Positions 9,923 to 43,022 of a stretch of DNA of 64,000 nucleotides are shown here, one piece after another; positions within the stretch are counted from its first letter, which is position 1, and each line of letters begins with the position of its first letter. The stretch is taken from positions 14,209 through 78,208 of the IMG/VR virus record IMGVR_UViG_3300024264_000019; one strand, 5' to 3'. Origin of the DNA: a virus. A program made the position numbers and the translations under genes. The notes beneath the pieces were generated by a model, which saw nothing but the letters and a program-made list of their open reading frames with translations, was not told the origin of the DNA and did not search any database.

Positions 9923-12900
9923 TTATCTTAAAACTCCTTGAGGATCAATTTTAGGAGCTAATGCTGTTGCTAAATAATCAAGTATGACACCCTCTTGTAA
10001 TATACTTCTTAATTGATCTCTCATCACTGGAGTTAATACGCCCTTAACCACTTCAGAATTAAAGTCGAAGGTTATTCCTCCTTTAACCTCATGATTAATA
10101 ACTAACCCACCTAACTGCTCAGATAACTGAGCGGGTAATTCTTGAATAACTTTTATCGCTGCAGAAAAATCTTGGCTACCCTCTGGCGGACTAGTTGTGG
10201 GCGGTTTTTCTCCATCTGAATTACCACCATTTGGAGGGGTTTCTACTGGAGGTTCACCCTCTTGACTTGTCAATCTATTAACAAGGTCTTGTAGTGGAGT
10301 TGTGATAGTGCTTAAATTAGTAACTGCTAATCCTTGTTTCCATAAATTACCAAGCTGCACTGTTAATCCCTTTATTGGATCTTTTACTAGATTTGGGTCT
10401 AAACCTTCTTTTCCAGCCACTTTTTTAAGTTCTTCAGCGACTCTTTCGCTATTTTTTAAATCTGCTTCTAAATTTGCTTTTATTTTTTCAAAAACAGGTC
10501 TTAATTCTGCGGCTTTTTCTGGGTCCATGTTTTGTAACTGTTCCATTATATCATTCACATTAGCTAGAGCAACGATGTAATTTTCTGTATCTGAATTCAA
10601 TCCAGTGAAAATCGTCGATGAAACCCCAAGTACATCAGCGAGTGTTCTAAACGCGTCTATACTATCAGCTACAGGTGCAGCTGAATCGTCAGTAGGTAGG
10701 CGACCAAGCGTCGGTATAATTGAGGAGTCAGAGTTTATAGCTGCGTCAACCCCCGTTTTAATATCACCATCATTCAACCTCCGACCTCCTTGGTTTTCTA
10801 GTCTTGAGGATGACGCATCACCTGATGCTATCAGTTGATTAATAGCCACTCTTTGTAGCTCCGCTATCATTTTTTGCGAGCTAGCAACTTCTAGATCTCT
10901 CGCATTCTGAGCTATTCTATTACCCTTTTGCCCCGTGCCCTTAATGGAGCCCAGAAAGCCCTTCATTTCCTTAAGTGTTACATTTCCATCCTTGTTGCCT
11001 GCAGCAAATTCTGCAAACTGCCTTGCTAGCATTTGATTTTGTTCGCTTTGTTGTCTCTGAACATCTTGTTCAAATTTACCTGTTCCACTAGTGGGTTTAG
11101 GTTCTTTTATATTCATCTCTCGTTTTTCAATTTCGCTGGGGTTAAACAAAGCAGACATATCAATATTGCTAGCTACTTCGTTCATTAATTCAGTAATTAA
11201 TCCGCTTTCGTTCCTACGCTTAATGTCATCATTCTCAATAGAAGCTTGCCTTCCTTGGAATCCCCTTGGGTCAATATAATTTCTAGATGATAAATATTCA
11301 TTAGCTGAAGATCTTGCCATCGTTTTTGTTTCACCTTGGTAATCTTTTAAACTTTGATTTGATTGAAACCTACTCATCATAGTATCAACGTTTTGTTGAG
11401 CTTGCAACATGTTCTGATACTCTGATAGTAGCTTCTCTTCAAGGTTAACTATTTTTGATTGAATTTCTACTGCTTTTTGGATTCCATCACCCATACTCTC
11501 CAAAGCTTCCTTTCCGTCAAGCGCTGACTGAGCGAATTCTTTTAAAACCGCTCCCCCAAAAGTAAGCATTGTACCATCTTCAGAGGTAGCTAATCTATCA
11601 AAATTCTCAAAGCTTTGCGCTCCGCCAGGCATTTCTTCTAATGATTTTCCCACTTTTGAAGTTGATAACTTTCCAGTTTTAGCGAAGTTGCTCATGGCTT
11701 CTTTAAATAAATCATTAAAAGCTCTAGCCTCTTCTTGTTGCATTCCCGCGTCTAACTTTAAATCTGTTTGTCTAGCTAAAGCAATTTCTTCCTGAGTTTT
11801 TCCTCGCAAGTCTTCACTACCACTAACAAAAGATGTTCCTTCGGATATTCTACTTGCTACCTGTTGCTGAGCTAGCATTCTCGCTTGAGTTTCGAAACTA
11901 TCATTTAAGTTTCTAGCCATATCTGTAGCTTCCCCAAGCTTACCTTGCATAGGATCCCTTCCTGACAAAGTTTCCTTGTTGTAATCATATGTATTACCTT
12001 CTCCAGTTAAAAAATCAAGACCTGTTTTCGCTCCTGCAACAGCTGTTTGCACTAAATCTCCAAACCAACTTTTTGCAACCGTTCCTGGCCCCATCTTATC
12101 ATCCTCATTAGCAGCTGTTCCAGCTTGAAGTAGTGCAGTTCTTGCTGCTGCTTGTGCCCCCATATTTTTAATAGCTTCTCCTAATAAAGCTAATTTTTGG
12201 GACGCGCTCATACCTGAGTTAGCTAATTGATTCATTCTTGATTGGACCTCTGGGTCTGAAATTTTATTTATAGATTCTCTTATTTGAGTATTTGCAGCTA
12301 TTATTCCCTTTGTATCTCCTGATTGAGAAGCTGCTTGTAGTTGCTGAACTCCCATAGCTAAATTCTGAATACTAGATGTATCCTTCATAACTTTATCCAA
12401 ATCCTTCTTGGCTTTACTTAAGGCTTTAAACGTGTCAGCTTGAGAGTCTCTATTGCTCATTTGATTCAGCCCACTACTTACTCCTTGAAAAGCTCCTAAT
12501 CCCATACCTATAGGCCCAAAAGCTGCACCCATAGCAGCAGAATTAAGTACATCCATACCTAATCTCCCGCTGCCGCCCACTGCTTCATCCTGTCTTCCAT
12601 CCCTTATCATTTCTGCGGCCATTGGTCCCATAAACATCGCCCCCATTGATGCGCCCCCCGCCATTGCATTCGCGTTAGACATTCTCTGCCTAGCTACAGG
12701 AGACAATCCATGTTTTCTAATTTTATTAAAACCTCTACTTCCCTGACTTCTTTGATTGTGCCTGTCTTGTTGTTGTTTTAATTCAAAACCTTTATCTGAG
12801 TCCATTCCAGCGTATGGGTTTAGGATTTTATCTCTACCTAATAATTTACTTTGTTTTCTTTCTTGCTCAAGTTTGAACAGCTCTTTCTCTTTTATTAATT

Positions 12901-15900
12901 TTTTTTCTTCTGGCGATATCGCAAATGAAGGTATTCCGTGAGTTTTTGGATTTAACCCTGTTTTATTAGCTCTGTTAATTCCTTGTTGTATACCCATTGG
13001 TTCATCAACCGTGTTTATCACAGCGAGTCCCTGTGGGTTCATAGGTCCCTTCAATAAAGAGCTTTTTTCAACTTTTATCTTGCTTGAAGATATCCCTCTT
13101 TGTTTCAGAGCTTCTGATTCCCTTGCTATCGCTTGATCCAACGCGAAATTTGGCAAAAACCCGTTTCCATAATTTGATATTTTCCCTTTAAAACTTGGGT
13201 TTGCTGAATGCCTTAGGTACTCAGGGTCCATATTTTTAAGAGATGATACGTTAGCTTTTTTATTATTATAAAAAAGGATTAATTTTTCTTGTAGCTCTTT
13301 TGGTAGATTTTTGAACTCGCTTGAATTTGTAAATCTTTTAATATTATCTAAATCTTGAATTCGATTTCGTTTGCTAATTTTAAATGGTTGTTTTCTATCT
13401 ATCGAAGTGACAGGTCGAGTCTTTAATTCTCCTTGTTTTGAACCTTGAATTCTGCGATTAAAATCAGCTACTCTCCCACTAAGATTAGAGAACTCTTGAC
13501 CACCTAAAGGTTTAGATGCTTGAATTTTTTTATTATGAGCAAGTATTAAATTTGCAAGTTTACTAAAGTTTGGAATATGACCTTTAGAAAATCCAAGAAT
13601 TTGAAATACATCATCAATTTTGTCAAGTCCAAATTTTTCATGTATTCTTTGGAACTTTCGAGCTCCCCCTGCGGCTTTTACATACGCATCAATTTTGTAT
13701 TGTTCATTCTTATTTTTTCCAATTTTTAATTCCTTAAGGTATTTATTTTTATTAAACTGCTTAAACCTTCTCGCTGGCCTAGCAAAATTCGGTATTCTCC
13801 CCTCAGAGAATCTATTACTTCTCGATCCAAATCTATACTCTGGTAAACCATCCCCACCAAGCCTCCTCGTTAATGAAGTAGGTCTTTTTTTTCCTGGTTT
13901 ACCTCTTTGTGTTTTCTTTGAGTATTTTTGGTAAAACTCATCAAGAGCTTCTTTTTGTATTTTAATTTTTTCTATCTGTTTTTCGATATTTCTTAACTCG
14001 TTAACATCTCCACCTGATCTTCCAGATAATAAATCCATTGCTTTTGATTGAGTTGATTTAAAATCATACTTTATATCTTCGTTTTTTCGTTTATAGCTTT
14101 CTGCGTCTTTTCTTTTTAAATAAAAAGTGTCTGAACCCATTTTTATAGGAACTCCCGAAACCGACTCTCTTAGACTTTTGGTTAATTTATTATTTTTTAA
14201 TTTGTCTCTGTATTTATACATCGCATATCCCGCCAGCCCAATTCCAGTCCCTACTCCCCCAGTAGTTAATAAATCTCCAACTACCGATCCTCCTACCCCT
14301 GCTCCTCCTGCTCCTCCTACCCCCAAAGCCAACTTTCCTGCGGCTACTGCCTTCCCTCCCAATCCAACTGTCTGCCCGACTGATGATAGTCCAGATAAAC
14401 CTTTAATTCCCAAACCTATCGCTCCAGCTCCAGCTCCTAAAGCGCCAGCAACCCCTAGGCGTTTTTTATTTTTATTAAGAAACTCTCTTGGTTTACTAAA
14501 TTTCTCTTTTCCGAATTTTTGTAAACCTATTAATTTATTTTGAATATTTAAAAACTGTTTCTGTCCAAATTCTTTCGTTTTAGACGCTCCTGTTCTAGCG
14601 TAATATGTTAATGGTGATATTAATTTTTCACCAAGAAAAGCCTTTCCGTCTTTAATTCTTGAACCTAACTGTTTATAGTTTACATTTGTTAATTGGTCAA
14701 AGCTTTTATTAAAAATACTAGGACCTTTGGCTTTCCCCGTTTTAGAAACTTCTTCATAATTCTCTAATACATACAATAGATCTCTAAAGGAATTAACCCC
14801 CTTACCCCAAGCTGAAGAAATACCTTTAAATATTTTTGATCTTTCGGTTTTGTTTTGAATAGATTTAGTTTTTTCAATAATTGATTTTTTAGTTTTCTCT
14901 TCTTTGCTTGACCCTGAACTCCAAGATCCTACTTCAGGGTTAAAAGAGTTTTTTCCAAAACTGTTAAAAAAATCATTCATCCATTTTTTTGAATCTTGAT
15001 ATTTGTCTCTTGTTTTTCTAATTTTCTTGTGGCCAAAAGCTAGAACGTTCCTACCCACACTTTTAGATCTTTCGTATTTTTCATTCAAACCTTCAATAAA
15101 TCCAGACATGGGCAAACTCATTTTCTTATCTTTAAAATTTTTCAATCCATTTACGACGCTAGAACCAACCCTACTCCCACCTTTCCCCACTAAGGATAAA
15201 GTTTCTGAAATTCCCCTAGTGGCATCAATTTGCCTAAAGGGTCCCGTTGCGGATGCGATTGATCTTACAGCTCCACTAGCAATTGCTTTAGGTAAATTAA
15301 TGGCAGTTGATTTCACGAAATTCCCAGCCTTATCCACAAAGTATGTTCCATATTGTTTAACATCCTGTTTCATTCCTTGGAGTTTTTCACGTCTAGCTGT
15401 TCTTTTTTCTATTTGAGCTTTAGCTTTGTTTTCGACCTCAAACAGTCTTTGCACTTTTTTTCCATTAGGGTCTTCGCTACCCTTAAAATCTACATTTTTT
15501 CCAGTCGACTTGGAATAATATCTTGTCGTTTGAGTTTGGTCATTTGATCCAACAAATTTTAAATCATTATACTTTATTCCATCTGGACCTGTAGCCCTAA
15601 ATGTAGCATTCCTAACTATATTTGATCTATTCTTTAAGCTATTTAATTTAGAACTCTCTAAAGCCTCTTTTGCTTCAACAGCTTTTTTAATAAATTTTTC
15701 TTTTTTCTCCAAAGCTTTCTTACTAGCTCTTTCCACAGGGCTCATTAAATTCATATTTCTTAAATCTATTATATTAGCAAGGTCCGAAGGTATTGCTCCA
15801 ACGGTATTCATGAATTTTCCTCCCATAGCTACAGCTTTATCTTTCACCGCAAGTCCTAATTGTTGAGCTTTTTCACTTACATATCCTGGGCTTAACATTG

Positions 15901-18900
15901 ACGTGTTTATTCCCCGACCCTTCTTCTTTTTATTTTTTTCTTGGAGTTGTCTTCGTTTTTCGGTTGAGGCTTGCGAGTGAATTACCGTTTGATTCAGGAA
16001 GTTATCGAGATCCAAACTTCTTCCTCCATTTTTTTGAATTAATGAACTTATACCTTCTCCACTCATTCCCCAATACCCCTTATCTTTAAAGAAATGTCTC
16101 TTGTCAATATCAACTGCAGATCTCATATCTTTTTGTCTTTTCTCTAAGGGTGTCGCTCCTGATCCAAGGAAAAAATTTAAATGTTCTGCTAGCCCTGATT
16201 TTTGTTGAAACTTCACAAGTCTACTGTTCACCTCTCCTTGAATCAGTTTTTTATTCTTAGGGTCTAGTATTATTCTTCTTAAATCTTTTGGCGATATTTC
16301 TTTACCATCAATTTTAATCTCTTGATTTTTCCTGTCTATTACTAAACTTCTGTTTCCAGCAACTTCTTTAGCTTCCTTTGTGAAATTCTTATCTCCACTT
16401 AACATCGACTCTTTAACTATAGACTCAATAAATCCAACGCTACCAGTATTCGGATCTAATTTTCTAATACTTTTATCTCTATCCCTTAATGCAAAATTAG
16501 GTATGTATCCGCTTGATAAATTCTGAACTCCAATTTGTTTTTCTATATTACCAACTCTTGAAACTAAACCTTGAACCGTATTCTGAATTTGAGAAACTGC
16601 ATTCATTGAAACCGCAGCTCCAACAGCACTAGTTTTGGCAATTCTTGAGCTCCTCTTGGTTTGCGAGCCAATACTAGCTTCCTGGTTACCAGGGAAAGCT
16701 CCATAGCCTTTTTGCTTCCCTAAGTATCTCACTCCTGTCATTTTACCGTACTCAACATCAAAACTTTTTTGCCTCAACCATTCTTTTTTTGATAGTTTTT
16801 TATCGATTAAATAATGGTGATCCATGTGATTATATTTCTTCGAAGCTTCTTTATGGTTTTTAGCGAAACCTGCTGTGACTAAATCTTGCTTTTGGTTTTT
16901 CCTTAGACCTGCAAAATTTGGTATATATCCAGTAGCAGCTTTAGTGAGGGGCCCATAGGACTTTCTGCTCGTCCTCGAAACTTCCATCTGTTTTTCTTTT
17001 TGCGCTTTAGATAGCTTCACTGTGTTTTGCGGTATCTTTAATACCTTTGAGCTAAAATCCCTCTTCGTATCCGCGTTAAGAGCTATTTTTGCATCAGCGA
17101 ATGGAGTGTAATATCCAAATAGCTTTTGAAGTTTTTCGTCAGGAGTACCATTGATATCAAAACTCGCATTGTTTTTTGTAAAAAGCCTGTTTTTTCCTAC
17201 AGCCTGCAAAGCTGTTTCAAAAATCGAGCCAGAAGCTGAGCCCACGCTTCCTGCGTTAGCCATTCTACTAATTCCAGGAATATTCATTCCGAAATTTCCA
17301 GCGCCAGCCATTTCTCTAGCTAATCTAGATGACTCCCCAAGCATTAAATCTTCTATTCTGCTTCTTATATTACCTTCTGTATTTTTTAAAGACTTTGGTT
17401 TTATTCCCTCAACTCTATATTTCATCCTCACATTACCCTTTTCCGTCTTGTAGGAAGTATCAACTCTTCTTCTTATATTGTTTGTAGCTACAAGCATTGT
17501 TGCTTGAGTAGAAGCGTCAATCGTTGGCATTTTATTTTTAATATCTCTAGAAGCTTGCTTTTTTGCCACTATATTTTCTTTAGAGTTTTGAGCTTTAAAA
17601 CCTTTTATTTTTTTCTGATCCTCAACGGAAAACATATTTAAATAAACCTTTTCACCCTGCGGGTCTTTAGAGAAATCTCCATCTTTCAACCTGTTAATTT
17701 TTTGAGTAGTAAAGAAACCTTTTTTAGTTTGAACTCCAGCTGCAAAATTTGGAGTCTTAGCTCTAGCTGATCCATATGTCCTGGGATCAACCCCTTCAGC
17801 TTTAGCTCTTTTTATTCCTTGAGAAATTCCCATTGGTTCGTCACGGGTATTGGTGACAGCTAAACCTATTGGGTTTTCTTTTGTAATTAAATCTGGACTT
17901 CTTTCAATTCTTATTTTTGATCTTGGTACTCCAGCTTCAGTTTCTCTCTGAAGTGCTTCTGATAAAGCGTTTCTCGCAAAATTAGGGATTAAATTTGAAT
18001 TTACTTCAGATGAGTTTGCGTAGTTTGGGATAAAACCTTTCCCCATAGTTTTTATATCAATTTTGCCACCTTTTTTGAAGTGTTTCCTTAGGGATAATAA
18101 TTTATCTGGATTATATCCCATCTTCATTAACATCTGAAAATCACCCTCTAAACCTTTTTTGAAATAAGATTCTAGCCAGAGTTTTTGAAACTCCCCACCC
18201 ATCCCCTTTTTCACGGTGCTCACGCTCTCTCTTTTGAATAGAGAAGATTTAAATTTTATATTTTTATTAGCTGGATCCTTTAATGTGTCTTGTATTTTTT
18301 GATATCTATTTCTTTTATCAATAAAATTTGGTATAAACCCACTTGAAGCTGACCTAACTCCTCCACTGGGAATTCTATGATTTGGATCTAAAAACAAACT
18401 TTGACTTTGGGAGGAATCTTTTCTTTTAATAAAATCTTCAATTGATTTTGGAATTGTTGCGTTTTTGTTTAAATTATTAGTTACGTATTTTTTGTAAAAT
18501 TCTAATTCTTTCTGATTATCAATAGACTTGATTCTTGTTGAGAAAATTTTCGATAATTTATCTTGGCTCGAGTATTTGTATATTGCTTGTTTATTTTTAA
18601 AATCAGGGTCGATCATGCTCCTTAAAACCCTGAAAGAATCTGTTTGTTTGAAACTTTCTTTATTTGCAGATATTACAGATTGGCTTAATTTAGTATCTGA
18701 GGGAGTTATCATGTTGATTCCTCCACCAAATAAAGCGTTACCAGAGGTTAAATTAATATTTTCTCTTTTATTATTTTTGTGCCCTATTGGTTTTTCACCC
18801 AGCCCTTTTTGTTTCGCAGCTACCATATTTAAATATTGGTCCGCAGCTTTCTTTAAAGCTACAACAACATTTTGCTTTTTAGTGGCTTTTGTTTCGAAAA

Positions 18901-21406
18901 GTCTATCTTTTTTTACTCCTTTTTTTCTAGCTGACAGATCAAAACTTGCTCCATCAGGAATATACTGAACATCAGAATAACCCTTTTTTTGTAAAAAAAC
19001 CTTGCTTTGATACTCCCCCTCTAAGCCTTTTATTTTCGATGATAAACCTTGAAACAAATCACCTAATTGCTTTGGTTGTTTTTCAGTTTTTGAGTAATTA
19101 TTAAATTTGCTATTTTGAATATTCTTAGCGGTTTCTAAAATTCCTTTATACGGTCCACTTTTTATTTGACTTCCGTATCTATTTCTAAAAGCCTTGACAG
19201 CTTTTTGATTTGTTTGATATTTTGTTAAACCTTTTTTCTCGGCTTCTGGACTTTTTTCTATCAATCCTGGCACCCCCTCACTCCCCCTAATTATTTTTGC
19301 AGCATTTTTACCAAAAAAATCGTTATTCAAATCCATTTTTTGAACTTTTACCCTACCTATGAACCTGTCTGTTAAATCTGACAATCTAGATATAGGCCCT
19401 TTACCAGCCGCTGACGCCCCTAGTTCTAGTGAGCTGTATGAATGTTTTTTATTTAATAATTTATTGAAATTAGGTATGAATCCATTTGCGGCTGTAATTT
19501 TTTTAGCGCCTTTTGGTAAGCCATACTGTTTAGCCATATCTCTATTGAAAATAGCCGTACCACCACCACCTCCAAAATTATTAACAGCCCATTCTCCAGT
19601 ATGAGCTACCACGTTTTCACTCCTCCCTCTTCCCATTTTATGGTTTTTTATTAAAACTGGCTTATCTGTTTTTCTAGCCCCACCAACTCCAGAGTTAATA
19701 TCTTGTTTTTCTTTATTTAAAGATGGGAGAAACCCATTAGACATCCTTAAAGTATTCCTCCCTTTTGTTTTTGAAGCTCCCTTTCCGACTGGCACGAATC
19801 CTTTCTCTGATGCCCCAACTCCAATTAATCTAGAGCTCGCTGCGATTCTTTTTATTAAAGCCTCTTGTTTTAATCTTTCAGCGGTTTCCTGTTTAATTAA
19901 ATTTAAAATTATTTGCTCTTGCTTTGCTGTACTACTTCCAGCTGCAAGAATTTTTTGGTATATTCCAGAATTAGTACTTAAGATTTGTCCTATAGCTGCT
20001 TGTAACCCCTGCTGTCTTTTTGATTCTCTATTTAAACCAAGAATGTCAGAAAAAGCTTCTTTGGCGAATTTTGTTACAAGCCCAAAAATCTTAAGAAAAG
20101 CAGCTCCTAATATTACCATTCCAGGCCCAGTTAAAAAACTTCCAATCCCTCTTATTAAATTTTTAGCTACATTACTACCTTCATTTTCTGAAAGTAGATC
20201 GTTTAATTTTTGAGCTAAGCTATTTAGGAATGTTAAAATTTCTTTAAAATTTCCTGAAAAAGCTAAGTTCCCTATTGATGAGGCTAATTCTTTTGCGCTA
20301 AGCTGAGTTTGAGTAAACATAGCTGACAAGGTGGTGTTTAAATCTTTATTTCTTTGTATAGCTTCGTTTGTCGTATTATTTGCAACCCCCAACGCTTTAT
20401 TGTAAATTGAGTACCCACTATTTAAGTCTTGAATTAACGCTTGGAGATTTTGTATTTGGTAAACTCCAGCCAACTGCTCCGCTGTGTAGGCTTTTTGACT
20501 ATCGCTTAATGTTTTATAGACTCCCGCATAATCTAGAATAACTGACATTGAATCTCTAAAACTTCCATCGTTATTTTTTGTAGTCACACCTATTTCTTCT
20601 AAGGCTTCTCTGACCCCACTCCTCTTAATCCTTGTAAAAATACTCTTAAATCCATTACCAATAACAGACCCACCTCTAGCGGTTCTTTGTTGAACCGCAG
20701 TTACCACAGCAGCTAACTCGTTAAAAGAAACCCCTGAAGACTGAGCTACAGCCCCAGCTCTTGACATAGCTTCAGCTAAATCTGCAGATGAAACAGCAAA
20801 AGCTGCGTCAACATTAGCCATTCTGTTAATTATTTGTGAATGAGTAATTCCTTCTTTATTAAAAGAGTTGATTGCAGCTGTTAAAGTTTCTGTCGACTTA
20901 ACAGCATCTAAGCCTGACAATCGACTTAAGATTAAAGCTGAATTCACCCGAGCTAAAGTTTCTTCTGCGCTTAATCCTTGTCTAGCAAGTTCCGTGGCTG
21001 ATTCCGCAACATCCTTAAAAGATGTTGCTGTATTTCTAGCAACATCAAAAAGTCCAGCTCCAAATTTTTGCATAGCTTGGTTTGAGGCTTCCATAACTAC
21101 CTGCACGTCTTTTAAAGATTTTTCGACTTCAGCGGTTGTTTGAATCATAGCTCTAAATGCGTCACTTACCCCATTAATTACTCCAACAGCAGCTCCAAAA
21201 GCAAAAACTCTAGCTGCAGAAGCATCCATGGATTTTTGAAACTCACTAGCTGAATTAGTTATTCTACCAAGGGGTTGAACGATACCATTGGCGTTTAGCG
21301 TAGGCGACATCTGCATTTTATTAACAGCTCTCTGCGCGCCCTGCGCATCTCTAATTATACTCTGCCTGTAACCAGTTGCAGCTGTAGGTATATTAACAAC
21401 ACTCAT
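9923..21406 (-). CDS. Tail tape measure protein (3827 aa) with inserted cargo domains
   Basis: N-terminal TP901/PhageMin_Tail-like core (GAGLFDVARNTATSFKDVAESATELARQGLSAEETL), Gly-rich transmembrane stretches, position after tail tube and chaperones, SD AAGGA. Confidence 0.9.
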   Translation of the reverse strand: MSVVNIPTAATGYRQSIIRDAQGAQRAVNKMQMSPTLNANGIVQPLGRITNSASEFQKSMDASAARVFAFGAAVGVINGVSDAFRAMIQTTAEVEKSLKDVQVVMEASNQAMQKFGAGLFDVARNTATSFKDVAESATELARQGLSAEETLARVNSALILSRLSGLDAVKSTETLTAAINSFNKEGITHSQIINRMANVDAAFAVSSADLAEAMSRAGAVAQSSGVSFNELAAVVTAVQQRTARGGSVIGNGFKSIFTRIKRSGVREALEEIGVTTKNNDGSFRDSMSVILDYAGVYKTLSDSQKAYTAEQLAGVYQIQNLQALIQDLNSGYSIYNKALGVANNTTNEAIQRNKDLNTTLSAMFTQTQLSAKELASSIGNLAFSGNFKEILTFLNSLAQKLNDLLSENEGSNVAKNLIRGIGSFLTGPGMVILGAAFLKIFGLVTKFAKEAFSDILGLNRESKRQQGLQAAIGQILSTNSGIYQKILAAGSSTAKQEQIILNLIKQETAERLKQEALIKRIAASSRLIGVGASEKGFVPVGKGASKTKGRNTLRMSNGFLPSLNKEKQDINSGVGGARKTDKPVLIKNHKMGRGRSENVVAHTGEWAVNNFGGGGGTAIFNRDMAKQYGLPKGAKKITAANGFIPNFNKLLNKKHSYSSLELGASAAGKGPISRLSDLTDRFIGRVKVQKMDLNNDFFGKNAAKIIRGSEGVPGLIEKSPEAEKKGLTKYQTNQKAVKAFRNRYGSQIKSGPYKGILETAKNIQNSKFNNYSKTEKQPKQLGDLFQGLSSKIKGLEGEYQSKVFLQKKGYSDVQYIPDGASFDLSARKKGVKKDRLFETKATKKQNVVVALKKAADQYLNMVAAKQKGLGEKPIGHKNNKRENINLTSGNALFGGGINMITPSDTKLSQSVISANKESFKQTDSFRVLRSMIDPDFKNKQAIYKYSSQDKLSKIFSTRIKSIDNQKELEFYKKYVTNNLNKNATIPKSIEDFIKRKDSSQSQSLFLDPNHRIPSGGVRSASSGFIPNFIDKRNRYQKIQDTLKDPANKNIKFKSSLFKRESVSTVKKGMGGEFQKLWLESYFKKGLEGDFQMLMKMGYNPDKLLSLRKHFKKGGKIDIKTMGKGFIPNYANSSEVNSNLIPNFARNALSEALQRETEAGVPRSKIRIERSPDLITKENPIGLAVTNTRDEPMGISQGIKRAKAEGVDPRTYGSARAKTPNFAAGVQTKKGFFTTQKINRLKDGDFSKDPQGEKVYLNMFSVEDQKKIKGFKAQNSKENIVAKKQASRDIKNKMPTIDASTQATMLVATNNIRRRVDTSYKTEKGNVRMKYRVEGIKPKSLKNTEGNIRSRIEDLMLGESSRLAREMAGAGNFGMNIPGISRMANAGSVGSASGSIFETALQAVGKNRLFTKNNASFDINGTPDEKLQKLFGYYTPFADAKIALNADTKRDFSSKVLKIPQNTVKLSKAQKEKQMEVSRTSRKSYGPLTKAATGYIPNFAGLRKNQKQDLVTAGFAKNHKEASKKYNHMDHHYLIDKKLSKKEWLRQKSFDVEYGKMTGVRYLGKQKGYGAFPGNQEASIGSQTKRSSRIAKTSAVGAAVSMNAVSQIQNTVQGLVSRVGNIEKQIGVQNLSSGYIPNFALRDRDKSIRKLDPNTGSVGFIESIVKESMLSGDKNFTKEAKEVAGNRSLVIDRKNQEIKIDGKEISPKDLRRIILDPKNKKLIQGEVNSRLVKFQQKSGLAEHLNFFLGSGATPLEKRQKDMRSAVDIDKRHFFKDKGYWGMSGEGISSLIQKNGGRSLDLDNFLNQTVIHSQASTEKRRQLQEKNKKKKGRGINTSMLSPGYVSEKAQQLGLAVKDKAVAMGGKFMNTVGAIPSDLANIIDLRNMNLMSPVERASKKALEKKEKFIKKAVEAKEALESSKLNSLKNRSNIVRNATFRATGPDGIKYNDLKFVGSNDQTQTTRYYSKSTGKNVDFKGSEDPNGKKVQRLFEVENKAKAQIEKRTARREKLQGMKQDVKQYGTYFVDKAGNFVKSTAINLPKAIASGAVRSIASATGPFRQIDATRGISETLSLVGKGGSRVGSSVVNGLKNFKDKKMSLPMSGFIEGLNEKYERSKSVGRNVLAFGHKKIRKTRDKYQDSKKWMNDFFNSFGKNSFNPEVGSWSSGSSKEEKTKKSIIEKTKSIQNKTERSKIFKGISSAWGKGVNSFRDLLYVLENYEEVSKTGKAKGPSIFNKSFDQLTNVNYKQLGSRIKDGKAFLGEKLISPLTYYARTGASKTKEFGQKQFLNIQNKLIGLQKFGKEKFSKPREFLNKNKKRLGVAGALGAGAGAIGLGIKGLSGLSSVGQTVGLGGKAVAAGKLALGVGGAGGAGVGGSVVGDLLTTGGVGTGIGLAGYAMYKYRDKLKNNKLTKSLRESVSGVPIKMGSDTFYLKRKDAESYKRKNEDIKYDFKSTQSKAMDLLSGRSGGDVNELRNIEKQIEKIKIQKEALDEFYQKYSKKTQRGKPGKKRPTSLTRRLGGDGLPEYRFGSRSNRFSEGRIPNFARPARRFKQFNKNKYLKELKIGKNKNEQYKIDAYVKAAGGARKFQRIHEKFGLDKIDDVFQILGFSKGHIPNFSKLANLILAHNKKIQASKPLGGQEFSNLSGRVADFNRRIQGSKQGELKTRPVTSIDRKQPFKISKRNRIQDLDNIKRFTNSSEFKNLPKELQEKLILFYNNKKANVSSLKNMDPEYLRHSANPSFKGKISNYGNGFLPNFALDQAIARESEALKQRGISSSKIKVEKSSLLKGPMNPQGLAVINTVDEPMGIQQGINRANKTGLNPKTHGIPSFAISPEEKKLIKEKELFKLEQERKQSKLLGRDKILNPYAGMDSDKGFELKQQQDRHNQRSQGSRGFNKIRKHGLSPVARQRMSNANAMAGGASMGAMFMGPMAAEMIRDGRQDEAVGGSGRLGMDVLNSAAMGAAFGPIGMGLGAFQGVSSGLNQMSNRDSQADTFKALSKAKKDLDKVMKDTSSIQNLAMGVQQLQAASQSGDTKGIIAANTQIRESINKISDPEVQSRMNQLANSGMSASQKLALLGEAIKNMGAQAAARTALLQAGTAANEDDKMGPGTVAKSWFGDLVQTAVAGAKTGLDFLTGEGNTYDYNKETLSGRDPMQGKLGEATDMARNLNDSFETQARMLAQQQVASRISEGTSFVSGSEDLRGKTQEEIALARQTDLKLDAGMQQEEARAFNDLFKEAMSNFAKTGKLSTSKVGKSLEEMPGGAQSFENFDRLATSEDGTMLTFGGAVLKEFAQSALDGKEALESMGDGIQKAVEIQSKIVNLEEKLLSEYQNMLQAQQNVDTMMSRFQSNQSLKDYQGETKTMARSSANEYLSSRNYIDPRGFQGRQASIENDDIKRRNESGLITELMNEVASNIDMSALFNPSEIEKREMNIKEPKPTSGTGKFEQDVQRQQSEQNQMLARQFAEFAAGNKDGNVTLKEMKGFLGSIKGTGQKGNRIAQNARDLEVASSQKMIAELQRVAINQLIASGDASSSRLENQGGRRLNDGDIKTGVDAAINSDSSIIPTLGRLPTDDSAAPVADSIDAFRTLADVLGVSSTIFTGLNSDTENYIVALANVNDIMEQLQNMDPEKAAELRPVFEKIKANLEADLKNSERVAEELKKVAGKEGLDPNLVKDPIKGLTVQLGNLWKQGLAVTNLSTITTPLQDLVNRLTSQEGEPPVETPPNGGNSDGEKPPTTSPPEGSQDFSAAIKVIQELPAQLSEQLGGLVINHEVKGGITFDFNSEVVKGVLTPVMRDQLRSILQEGVILDYLATALAPKIDPQGVLR

Positions 21407-21435: not shown

Positions 21436-22425
21436 TTATTTTTTATGCATATTCATGAAATCTTCCATATTCAATTCTCCACCTTTTTCTTTTGCTATGT
21501 CGTGTATGCCTTTACCTCTCTGCTCTCGAACTCCCATTTTCTCTAAATCTTTCTTGCTCGCTCCAACATATGAAAATCCATCAGAGTTGTTTGATCTATC
21601 TAAGACTCTTTTAGCTTTTTCCTTTTTAACTTTTGACTCTTCTAAATATGCTAATATCTTACCTGCGTCTTTTGATATATCATCTGGTATTTCTTTGTTT
21701 TCAAATATAGATTTAAACATTTTTCCGTAATTTAATAAATTAATTTGATAATAACTTAAATCAAGAGGGTGTTTTTTAAAAAAACCAGAAAGATCTTTGT
21801 CGTAAAGATTTAATAAATTTTTAAACATACCCGATATTGATAACTGCTGTATATTTTTATCGCTAAATTTATCCATAACTTCATTGTACTCATTATATAA
21901 CTTTTGCAATGAGAAGACGTCTAGCTCATCAAACTCACTTTTTTTCCACCTCAACTCCTTACACTCCACATCTAAAAACAAAGTTTTTTGAAGAAACGTT
22001 TCATTACTTTTTTTATCTGCATAATTTTCAGCGCTAATCCTTGTTAATTCGTTTCTAATTTTTTTATTTTTTAAATGCTTAGTCTCAATCTCATCTATTC
22101 TTTGTTGTATTTTTTTCTTTTCTGAATCTTTAAATAAATTAATCAAAGTTTGTTTTAAATTTTTTAATTCAGTTGAATGTACCAGCAACTCTTCTTCGTC
22201 TTTCTTTGTCCACTGCTCTGTCTCATCTAAGGTTTTTAATAACTCTTCCTCTGTTGGTACGCCTTTTCCCTTCGCCTTTAACAATAAAGCCTCTCTATCC
22301 TCCTCCATAACCGCAATATCATCTACTCCAGGATGCTTAACATAAAAAAGGCTTCCCTGAAAAGTTAACTCAGAAAAGCCTTTTTTAATTTCTGTAAAAA
22401 TTTTATTTAATTTTTCTTCTTTCAT
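21436..22425 (-). CDS. Putative tail assembly chaperone
   Basis: Charged helical protein immediately upstream of the TMP; function by synteny. Confidence 0.5.
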   Translation of the reverse strand: MKEEKLNKIFTEIKKGFSELTFQGSLFYVKHPGVDDIAVMEEDREALLLKAKGKGVPTEEELLKTLDETEQWTKKDEEELLVHSTELKNLKQTLINLFKDSEKKKIQQRIDEIETKHLKNKKIRNELTRISAENYADKKSNETFLQKTLFLDVECKELRWKKSEFDELDVFSLQKLYNEYNEVMDKFSDKNIQQLSISGMFKNLLNLYDKDLSGFFKKHPLDLSYYQINLLNYGKMFKSIFENKEIPDDISKDAGKILAYLEESKVKKEKAKRVLDRSNNSDGFSYVGASKKDLEKMGVREQRGKGIHDIAKEKGGELNMEDFMNMHKK

Positions 22426-22435
22426 CCTGCATGAT

Positions 22436-23305
22436 TTAAGCAGGTTCTTTTTCTTCTTTTGTTGACTCAGTTAAATCTTCTTCCTCCTCCTCCTCTTCTT
22501 CATTCCTTTGATTAGTTTTCATTTCTTTGAAAATATCATCGAGACCTTCTTGTCCTTGAGTTCCACTTACGTACCATATTGTCACAATAGAAGAAATTTT
22601 ATCTATTATTTTTTCATACAACTCTTCCCCCTCTTCTTCAGCAAGTTCGTAAGCTTTATATTTTTCTTTAAAATCATCCCCCTCGAATAAATTTTCAAAA
22701 GGAGCGTCATCAGCTTCACCCTCTACAAAATAAGACAAATGAAGAATGTACCACATGATAGCTCTATTTCTAGCCTTAACATCAGCGGTGTGATCAAATA
22801 ATGAATTTTGAACCATTTCGTACTCAGTTAAGTCTTTCTTAATTTCAGACATTTCTTTTACAGCTTGCTCTAATTTAATTTTTTGCCGCTCTGATAATTT
22901 TCCATTCTCACTTAGGATTGAGAATTGTTGAACTTCTAGTTGCTTACTATGCATTTTATACAACAACGTGGAGTACAACTTTTGCTCTTTTTCTGACCAT
23001 ACCCCCCCTTGGTTACCATACTGCTTAGCTAGCATCGCTTTTGTCAACATGCCCATTTTTATGAATTTATTCAATTCTAAACTATAGAACATGTCACCTT
23101 CTTCAAGCTCGCTTCTGTTTGGTTTTTTAATAACCACTTTATATGGAACATCTTTCTTGACTGTAACTTTTTCTTTCGAAGTTACGACTTCCATCTTCCC
23201 TGTTTCTTTATTTTTTCGTTTTGATTTTTTTTCAACTTCTTCCTCGACTTCCTTATTTAAATCGACCGAGAAAGAGTAGAGCGTATTTTTTTCTGTAATA
23301 TTCAT
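22436..23305 (-). CDS. Putative tail assembly chaperone
   Basis: Charged helical protein between tail tube and TMP; function by synteny. Confidence 0.5.
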   Translation of the reverse strand: MNITEKNTLYSFSVDLNKEVEEEVEKKSKRKNKETGKMEVVTSKEKVTVKKDVPYKVVIKKPNRSELEEGDMFYSLELNKFIKMGMLTKAMLAKQYGNQGGVWSEKEQKLYSTLLYKMHSKQLEVQQFSILSENGKLSERQKIKLEQAVKEMSEIKKDLTEYEMVQNSLFDHTADVKARNRAIMWYILHLSYFVEGEADDAPFENLFEGDDFKEKYKAYELAEEEGEELYEKIIDKISSIVTIWYVSGTQGQEGLDDIFKEMKTNQRNEEEEEEEEDLTESTKEEKEPA

Positions 23306-23313
23306 ATTTCCTT

Positions 23314-24021
23314 TTACCTGTATTTGTAGTTAAATTTTTCGATATCTTTTTTGTATATTTCTGAAACCTTATTAGCTGTTTCATCAGTGTAATACTCCCA
23401 ATAAGGCTTCCTGCTTGATGAGTTTATTTTTCCTATCTCTGAATAGTTTAATTCAAAGTTTTTACATATTTCCTTTAAGTCGTCTTGTAAGTTTTCCACC
23501 CTGTAGACTTTATCCACCATTAAGTTTTCATTCTCATCGTAAAGGTGATCATATTGAGGTAATGTATGCCAAAATAAGTCGGTGTGATTTTTGGGGGCGG
23601 GTATAGCCTTTATAAAATCTTCAAATTTTTCAATGCTAGATCTATTTTTCCATGCGGAGACAACTCGATCCCAAGGATTCCTAACGAAAGCAAATTTGAA
23701 ATAGTTATTCCATGTACTTTGATTAATAAGTTTGTAACATTTTTTTTCATTATCATTAATGTTCTCAATGTATATTGCTTTATTATTTGTTAGATTAGCT
23801 ATTGTATTTTTTCTAGATATCAGATTAATATTATTTTTAATTCTTTGGCAGCAACCCTTTGAGTATTCGAAATCTGGAGCCACATCATCTCTTTTTCCAT
23901 TTATAGGTGAATATCTAATATTCTCCCAACCCTGGGAGTTTAAAAACACACTTAATGAAGTTCCAGCGTTTTTAGGGACGTGAAAAAAAAGAGCTTTTTT
24001 ATTGTGACTTATTTTTGCCAT
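23314..24021 (-). CDS. Sulfotransferase family 2 protein (carbohydrate sulfotransferase-like)
   Basis: PAPS-binding motifs FFHVPKNAGTS and FAFVRNPWDRVVSAW; C-terminal YKKDIEKFNY. Confidence 0.88.
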   Translation of the reverse strand: MAKISHNKKALFFHVPKNAGTSLSVFLNSQGWENIRYSPINGKRDDVAPDFEYSKGCCQRIKNNINLISRKNTIANLTNNKAIYIENINDNEKKCYKLINQSTWNNYFKFAFVRNPWDRVVSAWKNRSSIEKFEDFIKAIPAPKNHTDLFWHTLPQYDHLYDENENLMVDKVYRVENLQDDLKEICKNFELNYSEIGKINSSSRKPYWEYYTDETANKVSEIYKKDIEKFNYKYR

Positions 24022-24037
24022 ACATCTTATAGTAAAA

Positions 24038-24322
24038 TTATTTCTTGATTTTTATATCAAAATTTTCCATATAAGATATTAATTCTCTTCGAGCGTCGTT
24101 TCCAGAATCTAGGATTTTCTTCCTAAGGAAGTTTAATTGAGCTTCATCTAAATATTCAGCTTGGGTTAAAATCTTCTCTTCTTCGGGAATGGATTTTTTT
24201 AATTTATCAAATTGTACATCGTGATCTCTTTGAAGCTCTTGTATGAGCCCCAAGAAATGTTTGTACAAACTCGTGATTGATCTAACCACCTGAAACTCTA
24301 GTAGTTCTCGTTCGTTTTTCAT
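24038..24322 (-). CDS. Hypothetical protein
   Basis: ORF MKNERELLEFQV..., preceded by AAGG and a GTGTA motif. Confidence 0.65.
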   Translation of the reverse strand: MKNERELLEFQVVRSITSLYKHFLGLIQELQRDHDVQFDKLKKSIPEEEKILTQAEYLDEAQLNFLRKKILDSGNDARRELISYMENFDIKIKK

Positions 24323-24352
24323 ATATACCTTATACCTTATATGAGTATACAC

Positions 24353-24384
24353 AAAAAAACCTCGCCTGAGACGAGGTTTTTTTT
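24353..24384. terminator. Bidirectional intrinsic terminator after the tail tube gene
   Basis: A-tract, CCTCG stem, 7-nt loop, CGAGG stem, T-tract. Confidence 0.85.
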
Positions 24385-24402
24385 GCCTTTAAGTTTTAAA
24401 GA

Positions 24403-25686: not shown

Positions 25687-25746
25687 AATTTTTTAAAAGT
25701 TTTAAGTTATACATTTATATACATCAAAATTTAATAAATGTGAAAT

Positions 25747-27218: not shown

Positions 27219-27219
27219 A

Positions 27220-27666
27220 TCATCCCCTTCTTTTCAAGAGTATATTGTAATATTTAATTGAAAACATGCCAGATTTCGCCGCATCGGAAGAAATATTAAA
27301 AAGTTCACCATCAACTTCGATATCAGTAGCTTTTTTTAATAAGTTATACCCTTCTTCGTTGATTTTTATTCTTATGTGGTCGGAAGGTATATCTATACCT
27401 AATATTTCATTTTCACTGCTTTGCCTCAGAAATTCAAAATTTCCAGCATAAGCTATTCTCGCTTTTAATTTTAAAGTCTCAACGATTTTATCACTACCTT
27501 TTTGATTCTTAATTCTAGAATATAGAGCGTTATAAGTATTATTAGTAGCGACAAAAACTTTTTTTTCTTTTTTAAATATTGTAATCTCTCTAGCAAAAGT
27601 ATCATGAATATCATCAAATACTTTATCAAATCTACTTTTATCTGAACTTGATATTAAATCGCTCAT
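27220..27666 (-). CDS. Putative head-closure (stopper) protein
   Basis: Synteny; start moved to ATG 27666 (MSDLISS); DIEVDGELFNI beta motif. Confidence 0.5.
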   Translation of the reverse strand: MSDLISSSDKSRFDKVFDDIHDTFAREITIFKKEKKVFVATNNTYNALYSRIKNQKGSDKIVETLKLKARIAYAGNFEFLRQSSENEILGIDIPSDHIRIKINEEGYNLLKKATDIEVDGELFNISSDAAKSGMFSIKYYNILLKRRG

Positions 27667-32537: not shown

Positions 32538-34109
32538 TTAAAATTTTACAGATATATTCTCTCTAGCAAAAGCCATAGAGAATTTTTCTTTTAGTGTTGG
32601 TTCTTCAGTTGCGCTTTCCAAATTATTATTTGTTGCGATTTCAGAAGCTTCTTCAGTTACTCCTGCGAGAACTTCTTCTACTTCCACCACTTCTTCTGTT
32701 GCTTCAATTTTTTCAGTGAGTGTAGAATCTTCTCCAGAAATTCTTTTTTGAACTTCAGCTTCAACTTTTTGTGCAAAGATTTTTTCTTGTTCTTCTAGAT
32801 ACTTTTTATTTTTATGGGCCCACATTACTTGGAGTTTTGACGCGTACTCTTCAAAAGATTTTTCATCTAAACTAAGTTCTTGAACCTCTTTAGCTAAAAG
32901 CTTCTTATCTTGATCGTTAATTTCGTAGCTAGCTTCAATAGTTTCCATTCGAGCGTTAAAAGCTTCTTCTTTTTGGCTTTCTAAAATTTCGCCATTCAAA
33001 GATTCAACTTCAGTCTTAGACTGAGTTAGCTCAGTCCTTAAAGATTCAATTTCCTCTTTTAAATTAGCTTCTACTTTTTGAAGCTCTTCTTTTTGAGCGT
33101 CGATAGCGGAAAGTTCTTTTTCATATTCGTCGCTTTTGGATTTAATTGCATCTCCAATTACGCGACTAATATTAGCTACAGCTTCTTGAGTGAAATTATG
33201 CTCGGGCATTTTTTCGTCTAGAAGCACTTTAAATTCTTCGATGAGTTCTTGTTTTTGCATATTAGAAATTTGGTTAATATCATTATTTACATCAATTTTT
33301 TCTTTTTGTGAAGTTTTTTTTTGATTTTTATTTGCTAGATCTTCTTCTTCAAACTCTTCAGCCTCAATCTTCTCTTTTTTTTTGTGCACCAAAACACCTT
33401 TAACATCCGCAGCTGGATTACCAGTAAAGCCTATTCCTAATGGGTAAACTTCTCCAGCTACAACTCTATATATTGGCGTACCATCTTTCAACTCACCTTC
33501 TCCATCAAAACTCCTTAGGTATTCAGATAATTCTTTTACTTGTTTTTCATCAGTTACGATTTCAGCTTCATTTAAATCTTTACTACCAAGTGCTATATTG
33601 TATTCATTAAACCCAAGTTCCCAGCTCGCTGAAACAGACTCGTACAATTCATCTTCTTCATCACTTGACTTTAATACCAATTTACTAAATTCAGGAAAAG
33701 AGTGAGAGTAAACAACTGCCCCAAGTGCTATATTAAATTTCCCAGAAAATTCGTCGGGAATATCTTCAATTAAATTACCAGAGCTGAAATCTGAAAATCC
33801 TGTTGATACAATATGACCAACGACTTTCTTTTTATTGTGTTCTATATTAGTTGGTTTATTTAAAAAGTATTTTCTTATTTTCTTTGCTGTAATAGTATCA
33901 ATGCCATCATCGTTCTTATTAATTGTATTTACTACTGCAGCATTAAATGCAACTCCAAGAATATCAATATTTTGATCAAAATCAATATCTTGAGGAATTA
34001 ATTCATTTAAATCACTCTTTGAAGCTTGACTAGTATAAGAATTAGCTATAGATATTAACTGGTCAACTTTTAAGTTATTTGAGAAATTAGTTTTGTATTT
34101 AAAGTTCAT
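32538..34109 (-). CDS. Prohead protease fused to a coiled-coil scaffold
   Basis: NKNDDG...NIEH...VVGHI...SASWELGF N-terminal domain, acidic coiled-coil C-terminus, synteny. Confidence 0.7.
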   Translation of the reverse strand: MNFKYKTNFSNNLKVDQLISIANSYTSQASKSDLNELIPQDIDFDQNIDILGVAFNAAVVNTINKNDDGIDTITAKKIRKYFLNKPTNIEHNKKKVVGHIVSTGFSDFSSGNLIEDIPDEFSGKFNIALGAVVYSHSFPEFSKLVLKSSDEEDELYESVSASWELGFNEYNIALGSKDLNEAEIVTDEKQVKELSEYLRSFDGEGELKDGTPIYRVVAGEVYPLGIGFTGNPAADVKGVLVHKKKEKIEAEEFEEEDLANKNQKKTSQKEKIDVNNDINQISNMQKQELIEEFKVLLDEKMPEHNFTQEAVANISRVIGDAIKSKSDEYEKELSAIDAQKEELQKVEANLKEEIESLRTELTQSKTEVESLNGEILESQKEEAFNARMETIEASYEINDQDKKLLAKEVQELSLDEKSFEEYASKLQVMWAHKNKKYLEEQEKIFAQKVEAEVQKRISGEDSTLTEKIEATEEVVEVEEVLAGVTEEASEIATNNNLESATEEPTLKEKFSMAFARENISVKF

Positions 34110-41628: not shown

Positions 41629-41820
41629 TTAAATTCTTTCAATAGTTTTAGCTTCAAGTTTAAGCGTTCCTTTTTTAAATAAACCTTCATTATTATCAAG
41701 CAAAATAATAACAAAAGTTTTCCCATGATCGTCAAACCCTATTTGTGTATAAATTTTAATTACTTTTCCCGACTTAATGTCATTATCATAATGAAATTTA
41801 ATATAATCCCCCTCTTTCAT
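41629..41820 (-). CDS. Small hypothetical protein (SH3/KOW-like)
   Basis: MKEGDYIKF...GKVIKI; ATGA overlap with the upstream stop. Confidence 0.55.
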   Translation of the reverse strand: MKEGDYIKFHYDNDIKSGKVIKIYTQIGFDDHGKTFVIILLDNNEGLFKKGTLKLEAKTIERI

Positions 41821-43022
41821 TTTTGTTCGTTTTGAAATTTTTTGTCCCAATCTACATTGCCATTCTCATCTATGTATGGTGGTTTAGGTACGTCCACTTG
41901 TTGACTGCATTGGTACAACCCAACAGCTCCAACGAATAGCGCAAACGCGCTCAAGACAATCCAGGCGATATATTTCTTAAACCAATCTTTAAATTTTAAT
42001 TCAGGCTTAGGCTCTGGTTCAGGCTTAGGCTTAGGCTCTGGTTCAGGCTTAGGCTTAGGCTCTGGTTCAGGCTTAGGCTCTGGTTTAGAATCTTCAATAA
42101 TCAAATCTTTAACATTTACGATTCCGTGCCCCCAGTAATTATCCTTACCTGAATCGCCTTTATCAATTGTATATTTCAATAAATGTTCTTTTATTTGATC
42201 TACGGTTTTGCAATCATTTTGCCCAGATTCCTTTTCTTGTTTTTTATGTTTTGATAGCATGAGAGCAACAATTCCAACCATAAAAGGACAAGCCATGGAA
42301 GTGCCGCTTAGTACTGCATATGAATTATTTAAAAACGTGCTGTACACATTAACCCCTGGGGCAGCCCAATCCACTTCTGGACCTTTAGATGAAAACGAAG
42401 CGATCCTGCCCATTTCATCATACGCGGCAACAGCAATTGTCTCCTCATAAGCTGCGGGCCAGTTAACTCCTGAGTGGCCACTGTTTCCCGCCGCGCAAAT
42501 TACAGGTATATTCATTTCATATAAAGTTTTAATTTTTTGCTCAATTAATGCGTGCGGACGAGATGACCCTAGGCTCATTGATACAATGTCAGGTTTTTCG
42601 TCGATAGCGTATTCCAAAGCTTTAACAAGACCATCAAATGTACCTGACCCGTTTTTATTTAAAGCTTTCACTGATACGCATGTTGACCTAGGCGCTACGC
42701 CAACCATTCCGAATTTATTATTTTTTGAACATATAATTCCAGTGCAATGACTTTGGTGCCCATTTAGATCTTCATGAGGCTCATTTAGTATAAAATTTTC
42801 ACCAATCTTTGCGTTATCACCTATATCTTCATGAACGGGGTGTCCAGTGTCAATAACAATTATTTTCACCCCTTCTCCTTTGGTAATCTTCCAAGTTTCT
42901 GGAATCTTAGACTGTTTAACTCCCCAATCAATAATTTGATTTTTACTCAAATCATTAATTTCTTCTATACATATTATTGGTAGAGAAGTCTTAATTTTGT
43001 TTAATTCTTTATAGTTATACAT
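41817..43022 (-). CDS. Subtilisin-like (S8) serine protease with a PEPK linker and C-terminal transmembrane anchor
   Basis: Catalytic motifs VIDTG, NGHQSHCTG and GTSMA; oxyanion AAGNSG. Confidence 0.93.
   Translation of the reverse strand: MYNYKELNKIKTSLPIICIEEINDLSKNQIIDWGVKQSKIPETWKITKGEGVKIIVIDTGHPVHEDIGDNAKIGENFILNEPHEDLNGHQSHCTGIICSKNNKFGMVGVAPRSTCVSVKALNKNGSGTFDGLVKALEYAIDEKPDIVSMSLGSSRPHALIEQKIKTLYEMNIPVICAAGNSGHSGVNWPAAYEETIAVAAYDEMGRIASFSSKGPEVDWAAPGVNVYSTFLNNSYAVLSGTSMACPFMVGIVALMLSKHKKQEKESGQNDCKTVDQIKEHLLKYTIDKGDSGKDNYWGHGIVNVKDLIIEDSKPEPKPEPEPKPKPEPEPKPKPEPEPKPELKFKDWFKKYIAWIVLSAFALFVGAVGLYQCSQQVDVPKPPYIDENGNVDWDKKFQNEQK
42001..42087. repeat. Tandem repeat encoding (PEPEPKPK)n
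   Basis: tcaggcttaggcttaggctctggt units. Confidence 0.9.

Follow-up and report, generated by a model that had tools for sequence, protein, structure and literature searches.

The window analysed in this work is a stretch of 64,000 nucleotides (nt) of virus record IMGVR_UViG_3300024264_000019 of IMG/VR, which contains on its minus strand the gene of a giant tape measure protein (TMP) of 3827 amino acids (aa). Its middle part (aa ~556-2828) consists of exchangeable basic modules arranged in an array, which is opened by an entry domain and closed by a module named M1, and in which each element ends with a short junction peptide typified by GFIPNF. This peptide is under selection at the protein level, is confined to the array part of the TMP, and marks the points at which modules have been gained, lost, replaced or reordered among related phages. 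By analogy with the TMP of phage T5 (pb2), the junction peptide may be a site of proteolytic processing, a reading that is weighed below against its alternatives.

The tape measure gene and its array

Judging from its profile matches, the product of the gene (P0001) is a member of the PF10145 TP901-type TMP family (Table 1). The normal N-terminal core that the original prediction had assumed is present, with 105 bits over aa 112-314, and the matches of the complete product to TMP families in PHROGs reach an E-value of 2.6e-48. The gene is the longest of the tail module, lying 3' of the genes that occupy the tube and chaperone positions and 5' of the distal tail genes, and the order of genes in this neighbourhood is kept in 56-72 of 79 related loci.

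All 12 motif copies that had been proposed from the sequence alone were found in the protein. The strict pattern [ILVM]PN[FY] is observed nine times, whereas 5000 shuffles gave an expectation of 0.09 and never more than 3; a loose version of the pattern is observed 12 times, with 0.63 expected. No other open reading frame (ORF) of at least 80 aa in the six frames of the window, head proteins included, contains the strict pattern. The copies separate segments of 14-903 aa, in agreement with the unrelated segments of about 15-900 aa described in the original prediction, and the span that bears them is strongly basic, with a net charge of about +9.6 per 100 aa (+210 in total). Its flanks are near neutral, being mildly basic in the N-terminal core and slightly acidic over the last 999 aa.

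Within the 12 copies, synonymous codons (GGA/GGG/GGT, TTT/TTC, ATA/ATC/ATT, CCA/CCT/CCG, AAT/AAC) vary as they do in the gene background. Thus, selection acts on the peptide and not on a DNA site, which speaks against a pure recombination joint, and the suggestion that the motif works as such a joint at the DNA level could not be upheld.

The entry domain carries a motif copy at each end and two motif-like strands inside, and column conservation singles out E566, E605, N621 and M624 as invariant. M1 is the final array module in nearly all family members and is present twice in the 3827-aa TMP; its alignment keeps R, E, NP, D-E and Q-G invariant. By eye, the entry domain and M1 gave the impression of being paralogues, which is not supported by hhalign, as it aligned the motif only (probability 64%). 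The long motif-free segment of the array contains a Gly-rich hydrophobic stretch (about aa 2290-2375), and a second hydrophobic stretch, rich in Gly, Ala and Met, is found in the C-terminal part (about aa 2905-2975). It has to be mentioned that the first of these stretches (14136-14518) shows a very high summed contig depth in four of four runs (up to 328), a peak likely due to low-complexity matches from other organisms.

Table 1. Features of the tape measure gene, with positions in the window and residues of the 3827-aa product.
Feature	Residues (aa)	Position	Strand	Basis
Tape measure protein gene (P0001)	1-3827	9923..21406	-	single ORF, 11,484 nt; PF10145 and TMP PHROGs
TP901-type TMP core	112-314	20465..21073	-	PF10145, 105 bits (cut-off 33.2)
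Entry domain, ~90 aa	556-648	19463..19741	-	best-conserved stretch, 638 cluster representatives
Motif copy 1, GFLPSL	558-563	19718..19735	-	sequence
Motif copy 2, GFIPNF	642-647	19466..19483	-	sequence
Module M4	648-1024	18335..19465	-	module cluster; conserved GE...FDL...ETK
Motif copy 3, GFIPNF	1023-1028	18323..18340	-	sequence
Module M6	1029-1125	18032..18322	-	module cluster; different module here in P0004
Motif copy 4, GFIPNY	1124-1129	18020..18037	-	sequence
Motif copy 5, NLIPNF	1138-1143	17978..17995	-	sequence
First M1 module, ~75 aa	1144-1217	17756..17977	-	paralogue of aa 2755-2824
Motif copy 6, degenerate KTPNF	1217-1221	17744..17758	-	sequence
Module M3	1223-1494	16925..17740	-	conserved FETA...FDI...ADAK; motif-to-motif alignment with homologues
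Motif copy 7, GYIPNF	1493-1498	16913..16930	-	sequence
Module M27	1499-1634	16505..16912	-	module cluster
Motif copy 8, GYIPNF	1633-1638	16493..16510	-	sequence
Long motif-free segment	1639-2537	13796..16492	-	sequence; no Pfam match
189-aa in-frame indel, 567 nt	~1901-2089	15138..15706	-	contig comparison; inside long segment
Motif copy 9, GRIPNF	2536-2541	13784..13801	-	sequence
Module M10	2542-2610	13577..13783	-	module cluster
Motif copy 10, GHIPNF	2609-2614	13565..13582	-	sequence
Module M15	2615-2750	13157..13564	-	module cluster
Motif copy 11, GFLPNF	2749-2754	13145..13162	-	sequence
Second M1 module	2755-2824	12935..13144	-	module cluster and M1 alignment
Motif copy 12, HGIPSF	2823-2828	12923..12940	-	sequence
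Motif-free C-terminal part, 999 aa, near-neutral		9926..12922	-	sequence, charge, motif counts

The junction peptide as a family trait

A word-indexed search gave 73 TMPs of 2100-5756 aa, and all 73 of these long homologues carry the motif, with 2-18 copies each. Among TMPs of at least 2000 aa, 155 of 162 have at least two copies. When aa 540-1700 were used as the query of a HMMER search, 638 cluster representatives were obtained at E < 1e-3, nearly all of them giant TMPs. The logo built from 528 copies reads [NG]-A-[AS]-x-G-[FY]-[IV]-P-N-F-A; its information is limited to positions -6 to +4, being stronger upstream, with nothing downstream. Such an upstream-weighted logo resembles those of protease sites, and has been counted in favour of a cleavage site.

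Throughout the family, all copies follow the N-terminal core and precede a C-terminal part of about 1000-1900 aa that has none; the last copy lies at a median of 1425 aa from the C-terminus. The number of copies grows with the length of the TMP (r = 0.73), the copies are unevenly spaced (8 to over 900 aa apart), and the region that contains them, or cassette region, is more basic than either flank in 97% of 145 family members. Three short proteins (P0133, P0170 and P0179) end directly after a motif, at what may be either the end of the gene or the end of the contig.

Module exchange between related phages

Cutting 74 proteins at the motifs and clustering the pieces gave a set of module families. 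According to this clustering, the modules are mutually unrelated and are not repeats, and the families differ in order and number between phages. For example, M12-M8 in one phage appears as M8-M12 in another, and the order M4-M3-M5-M11 has its counterpart in M4-M5-M28-M22-M11-M3.

Pairwise comparisons lead to the same picture. Residues 1139-1642 of P0001 are equivalent to residues 1210-1712 of P0004, in a block of homology that starts and ends at motifs, and upstream of this block M6 of P0001 is replaced by an unrelated module in P0004. Residues 1218-1498 of P0001 are equivalent to residues 956-1240 of P0008, found at another position of the array and again bounded by motifs. The homology of M3 extends from one motif to the next and no further, the sequence on either side being unrelated, and its homologues occur in other module orders. 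Across 169 TMPs, 70% of the ends of high-scoring segment pairs that fall inside the array lie at most 10 aa from a motif, compared with 14% for random positions, the former figure being inflated in part because the motif itself aligns. The original prediction had proposed that the motif delimits unrelated segments which orthologues swap, and this is what the comparison reveals: the orthologues are not collinear, and the reordering, replacement, duplication and loss of modules that separate them are bounded by the motif.

Variation is also found at the population level. A 567-nt stretch (aa ~1901-2089) is skipped by contigs from three other marine studies and held in the contig of a fourth one; contig joints with short sides (20-23 letters) were disregarded as unreliable. 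The corresponding 189 aa are lacking in P0002 and P0003, are not a duplication, and have as their sole relative one TMP of 5756 aa (P0006).

Predicted folds and candidate activities of the modules

The original prediction had also held that the segments do not resemble the helices of tape measures. For the two elements modelled with AlphaFold2, the entry domain and M3, this is supported, since both are predicted as folded domains and not as plain helices. The entry domain is predicted as a helix plus a beta-meander, with a predicted local distance difference test score (pLDDT) of about 90 in the core, and its motif-like inner segments (consensus VVIPNF and YIVPNF) form core beta-strands with high confidence. 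M3 is predicted as a mixed alpha/beta domain, with a pLDDT of 77-88 in the first 160 residues and of 38-54 in the part that contains FETA..FDI..ADAK, and the motifs on both of its sides are predicted to be disordered (pLDDT < 50). A prediction of a three-copy complex of the entry domain scored 0.00 against a mark of 0.42, which is no evidence either way.

Structure searches returned no convincing neighbour for either model: the best hits of the entry domain had a Foldseek E of 0.7 and a VIA Z of 2.2, and those of M3 a Foldseek E of 0.09 and a VIA Z of 5.1, the latter covering a helical hairpin only. From such blank searches neither the novelty of a fold nor the lack of a nuclease fold can be concluded. 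Sequence profiles of the PDB gave nothing significant for the entry domain and M3. In the ESM Atlas, M4 yielded a weak lead to Tox-REase-7, a toxin family with the restriction-endonuclease fold (score 0.81), and M3 yielded none. The residue patterns conserved in these two modules would fit PD-(D/E)xK nucleases, an assignment that is tentative.

A recognisable enzyme domain is found in the array of a homologue. In P0024, a staphylococcal nuclease (SNase) domain (PF00565, aa 898-995) lies inside a module bounded by the motifs at 863 and 1057. The wall-hydrolase domains of other members (VanY, GH19 and SLT) belong to the C-terminal part, VanY and GH19 being outside the array.

Source of the window, neighbouring genes and candidate proteases

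The window covers positions 14,209 to 78,208 of a virus record of 78 kb, estimated to be 67% complete. At least seven further studies of seawater and marine metagenomes contain near-identical DNA, and no RNA run was among those listed with it. Searches with blastn and tblastn against 50,697 isolate-phage records detected a homologue neither of the cassette region nor of the entry domain, and among GTDB species genomes a homologue of the cassette region appeared only in one contig of a metagenome-assembled genome. Taking these results together, the source is an uncultured marine phage, probably virulent.

The window also encodes a large terminase, rIIA and rIIB, together with a block of structural genes without a match to any named family. 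The rIIA- and rIIB-like genes (59442-63093, minus strand) match phrog_612 (E 2.9e-90) and phrog_609 (E 3.9e-57), and the same phage has structural proteins that are mostly without a family match. Upstream of the TMP gene (21436-27732, minus strand) lie genes for products of 329, 289, 104, 427, 292, 198 and 170 aa, mostly conserved in 56-72 of the 79 related loci (L001-L079); most of these products match no family in Pfam, PHROGs or NCBIfam. These conserved genes form a coherent, unnamed tail module. Between them, at 23314-24021 (minus strand), a 235-aa sulfotransferase-like product is encoded (phrog_3347, E 1e-20), which appears to be an inserted accessory gene because its homologues occur in only five of the 79 loci.

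Two genes of the window had been named as candidate proteases for cutting the motif. The first (41817..43022, minus strand) encodes a genuine subtilase of family S8 (PF00082, E 3e-42) with a mycosin-like profile; its best likeness in NCBIfam is to mycosins of type VII secretion, and a Pro-rich repeat occupies aa 311-341. It was not found in the five related virus records searched, one of them a 100%-complete genome of 206 kb with a motif-bearing TMP, and it therefore looks like a lineage-specific accessory. The second (32538..34109), which had been taken for the prohead protease, resembles no protease family of Pfam, PHROGs or NCBIfam and no protein sequence of the PDB, and the motif occurs in no head protein. 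Thus, neither of them is a good candidate, the one for its absence from these relatives and the other for its lack of family support.

Likeness to the cleavage sites of T5 and lambda

Cleavage of the TMP during maturation has been known since the 1970s in lambda and T5, although its catalyst is not known (PMC12617516). The only TMP cleavage site that has been mapped is that of T5 pb2, where the cut follows R1127 and separates a hydrophobic stretch from the muralytic domain; the two products, pb2* and pb2C, are retained in the tail (Linares et al. 2023, PMC10038345). The T5 record reads GNANSFVPR/AEGG at this position (the slash marks the cut). When a log-odds matrix derived from 1018 distinct motif copies was scored over pb2, the window at the cut ranked first of 1205, whichever columns were taken. 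The site is conserved in Demerecviridae, and that of Klebsiella phage Kpn02, SANGFIPR/AEGG, reaches 17.7 bits (positions -6 to +1), compared with a median of 17.3 for true copies.

The T5 site and the present motif share the G-F-[IV]-P core and a lead-in of small residues, the former being written as [GS]-F-[IV]-P-R/A. In pb2, a single cut falls in a linker rich in Gly, Ser, Asn and Ala, separating a hydrophobic stretch from an enzyme domain, and the pieces are retained. The differences are also clear, since pb2 has one site instead of 2-18, and has neither a swappable array nor an entry or M1 domain. No sequence homology was found between T5 and the motif-bearing TMP family.

In lambda, the exact site of the C-terminal cut of gpH and its catalyst have not been established (PMC12617516). 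The best window under the motif matrix in gpH (L087, gene H) is GGMIPMF, at aa 104-110, with 10 bits (positions -6 to +1), which may be a product of chance or a hint of a role of the peptide other than cleavage. This segment is placed just before a predicted membrane-spanning stretch (116-140).

Interpretation

Taking into account the linker context of the copies, the upstream-weighted logo and the coincidence with the T5 site, the best single reading of the junction peptide is a proteolytic processing site like that of T5 pb2, a tentative proposal to which somewhat less than an even chance can be given. Also counted in its favour are the enrichment of the motif and its restriction to the TMP, its conservation throughout the family, the exchange of modules at the motif, the free variation of synonymous codons, the predicted disorder of the copies around M3, the SNase module of P0024, the basic charge of the cassette regions and the precedent of P23-45 for enzyme cargo. 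According to this proposal, the TMP would be cut at the junction peptides, as T5 pb2 is after ...[GS]-F-[IV]-P-R, so that the assembled tail would contain several basic proteins, separate from each other and in part nuclease-like. The released proteins would then exit by the tail tip before the DNA does, and would act in the host. By analogy with T5, the cutting activity might be a host enzyme or a component of the tail, and would not be the S8 protease of the window. In its most complete form, this proposal describes a true tail-borne polyprotein, in which every G-[FY]-[IV]-P-N-F-A would be cut after assembly by the activity that matures T5 pb2, possibly a host enzyme; about ten free basic effectors, nucleases among them, would be fired ahead of the genome, and the payload could be re-assorted among hundreds of marine and freshwater lineages. 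As a whole, this extended version is rather unlikely.

Several points weigh against processing and the release of cargo. Concerning the likeness to T5, 9.7% of shuffled pb2 sequences have a best window that attains the score of the T5 site (7.7 bits), SFTPR, the sequence of two other T5-like phages, scores low, and the residues that follow Pro differ, R/A in T5 and N-F-A in the motif, with Arg in the place of Asn. Moreover, the best window of lambda gpH is far from the C-terminal cut. With respect to the enzyme that would be needed, neither of the two candidates named in the window qualifies as a virus-encoded protease that co-occurs with the motif across the family, and no peptidase family was detected in the TMP at E up to 1. 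As for the cargo, the modules of the 3827-aa TMP have no Pfam match even at E = 1, and the PD-(D/E)xK-like patterns of M3 and M4 lack fold support. Finally, the motif-bearing region is split into separate genes in none of the 79 related loci, and the 189-aa population-level indel sits inside a module, off the motif.

The main rival explanation, which is unlikely, is that the junction peptide is a structural element for docking or strand addition. In each copy, a short beta-strand and a turn would anchor the basic, non-coiled-coil middle of the TMP to a repeated partner, such as the lumen of the tube or an assembly chaperone, or would zip TMP chains into register between modules, and the protein would stay intact as a ruler and as an ejected channel former with tethered domains. 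The motif-like segments of the entry domain, predicted as core beta-strands, indicate that the peptide can be structural, and the same reading is favoured by the unsplit state of the motif region in 79 of 79 loci, by the position of GGMIPMF in lambda gpH away from the cut site, and by the genes just upstream of the TMP gene, in the usual place of chaperones, which are conserved in 69-72 of the 79 loci. In addition, the report on phage P23-45 describes enzyme cargo on a TMP with no discussion of processing (PMC10770324). However, the C-terminal 1000-1900 aa, which the tube must hold too, have no copies. The irregular spacing (8 to more than 900 aa) and the predicted disorder of the linker copies that flank M3 also argue against docking, which furthermore leaves unexplained that the best motif match of pb2 is the T5 cut site.

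A second alternative is that of an ordinary giant ruler, in which, at 1.5 angstrom per residue, all 3827 aa would specify a very long tail of ~570 nm, comparable to the cases of P23-45 and P74-26; the modules would be filler that adds length, and the motif a relic of an ancestral duplicated unit. Giant TMPs with matching tails do exist (PMC10770324, PMC10034513), the number of motif copies follows the length of the TMP (r = 0.73), and the modules of the window belong to no recognised enzyme family. Nevertheless, this alternative is improbable: the modules are mutually unrelated and not repeats, M3 and the entry domain are predicted as alpha/beta and not as coiled coil, a homologue carries an SNase module, the charge of the cassette region is distinct from that of both flanks in 97% of members, and near-identical marine phages differ by 189 aa within the array.

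The last one, a linker kept only for the homologous exchange of modules, with a peptide devoid of any function of its own, would account for the breakpoints of swaps, reordering and duplications at the motif, yet it is very improbable, since free synonymous codons leave no conserved DNA joint beyond a few bases, the peptide is almost invariant over some 1000 distinct copies, and selection for future exchange is too weak to hold seven residues.

Comparison with known systems

TMPs have been regarded as rulers or channel formers with at most one wall-hydrolase motif. The family described here indicates that, in a large clade of uncultured phages, the TMP serves to hold cassettes connected by a standard joint, and these swapping module families probably act in the first moments of infection. 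If the joint were a cut site, as the processing reading proposes, it would provide a first consensus sequence for the cleavage that matures TMPs, it would reveal a new route for the delivery of phage proteins before gene expression, and it would offer a natural rule for designing phage tails that carry proteins. Cut or uncut, the motif cleanly marks where domains begin and end in hundreds of fast-swapping module families. A search of the literature for the motif strings returned nothing relevant, and no paper was found on a repeated junction peptide that fences an array of shuffled TMP modules.

Some known systems share part of these traits. In contractile injection systems of actinobacteria, reconfigurable effectors of the Sle1 type, which derive from TMPs, carry an exchangeable functional module within the tail-like tube; they differ in having a single C-terminal functional domain and in belonging to a bacterial injection system and not to a phage, and no junction motif is reported in the abstract (PMC13277306). 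Polyvalent proteins (Iyer et al. 2017, PMC5512222) resemble the present TMP in being giant strings of unrelated domains; theirs are related to conflict, probably enter the host with the DNA and are sometimes released by proteolysis. In contrast, polyvalent proteins are defined by known enzyme domains, often with an embedded zincin-like peptidase, none of which was found in the present TMP. The embedded peptidase (zincin-like MPTase, assemblin-like or LonC) is frequent in them, although not universal, and that work never mentions TMPs and describes no common junction peptide (PMC5512222).

Among TMPs, the virion RNA polymerase fused to that of Thermus phage P23-45 is a precedent for enzyme cargo (PMC10770324). 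As in the present case, gp96 of this phage is a giant TMP (5002 aa), and it carries a working enzyme into the host; it differs in having one fixed N-terminal enzyme and no repeated junction peptide, and neither exchange nor cleavage is discussed (PMC10770324). Other TP901-1-type TMPs have embedded functional domains, such as that of mycobacteriophage TM4 (PMC1796659), and with these the present TMP shares the PF10145 core, the position of the gene downstream of conserved tail genes and the hydrophobic Gly-rich stretches, while members of its family also have wall-hydrolase domains in the C-terminal part. Whereas the embedded motifs known from such TMPs are single fixed wall-hydrolase inserts, the present family holds, between copies of one junction peptide, up to about 17 unrelated, basic and shuffled modules.

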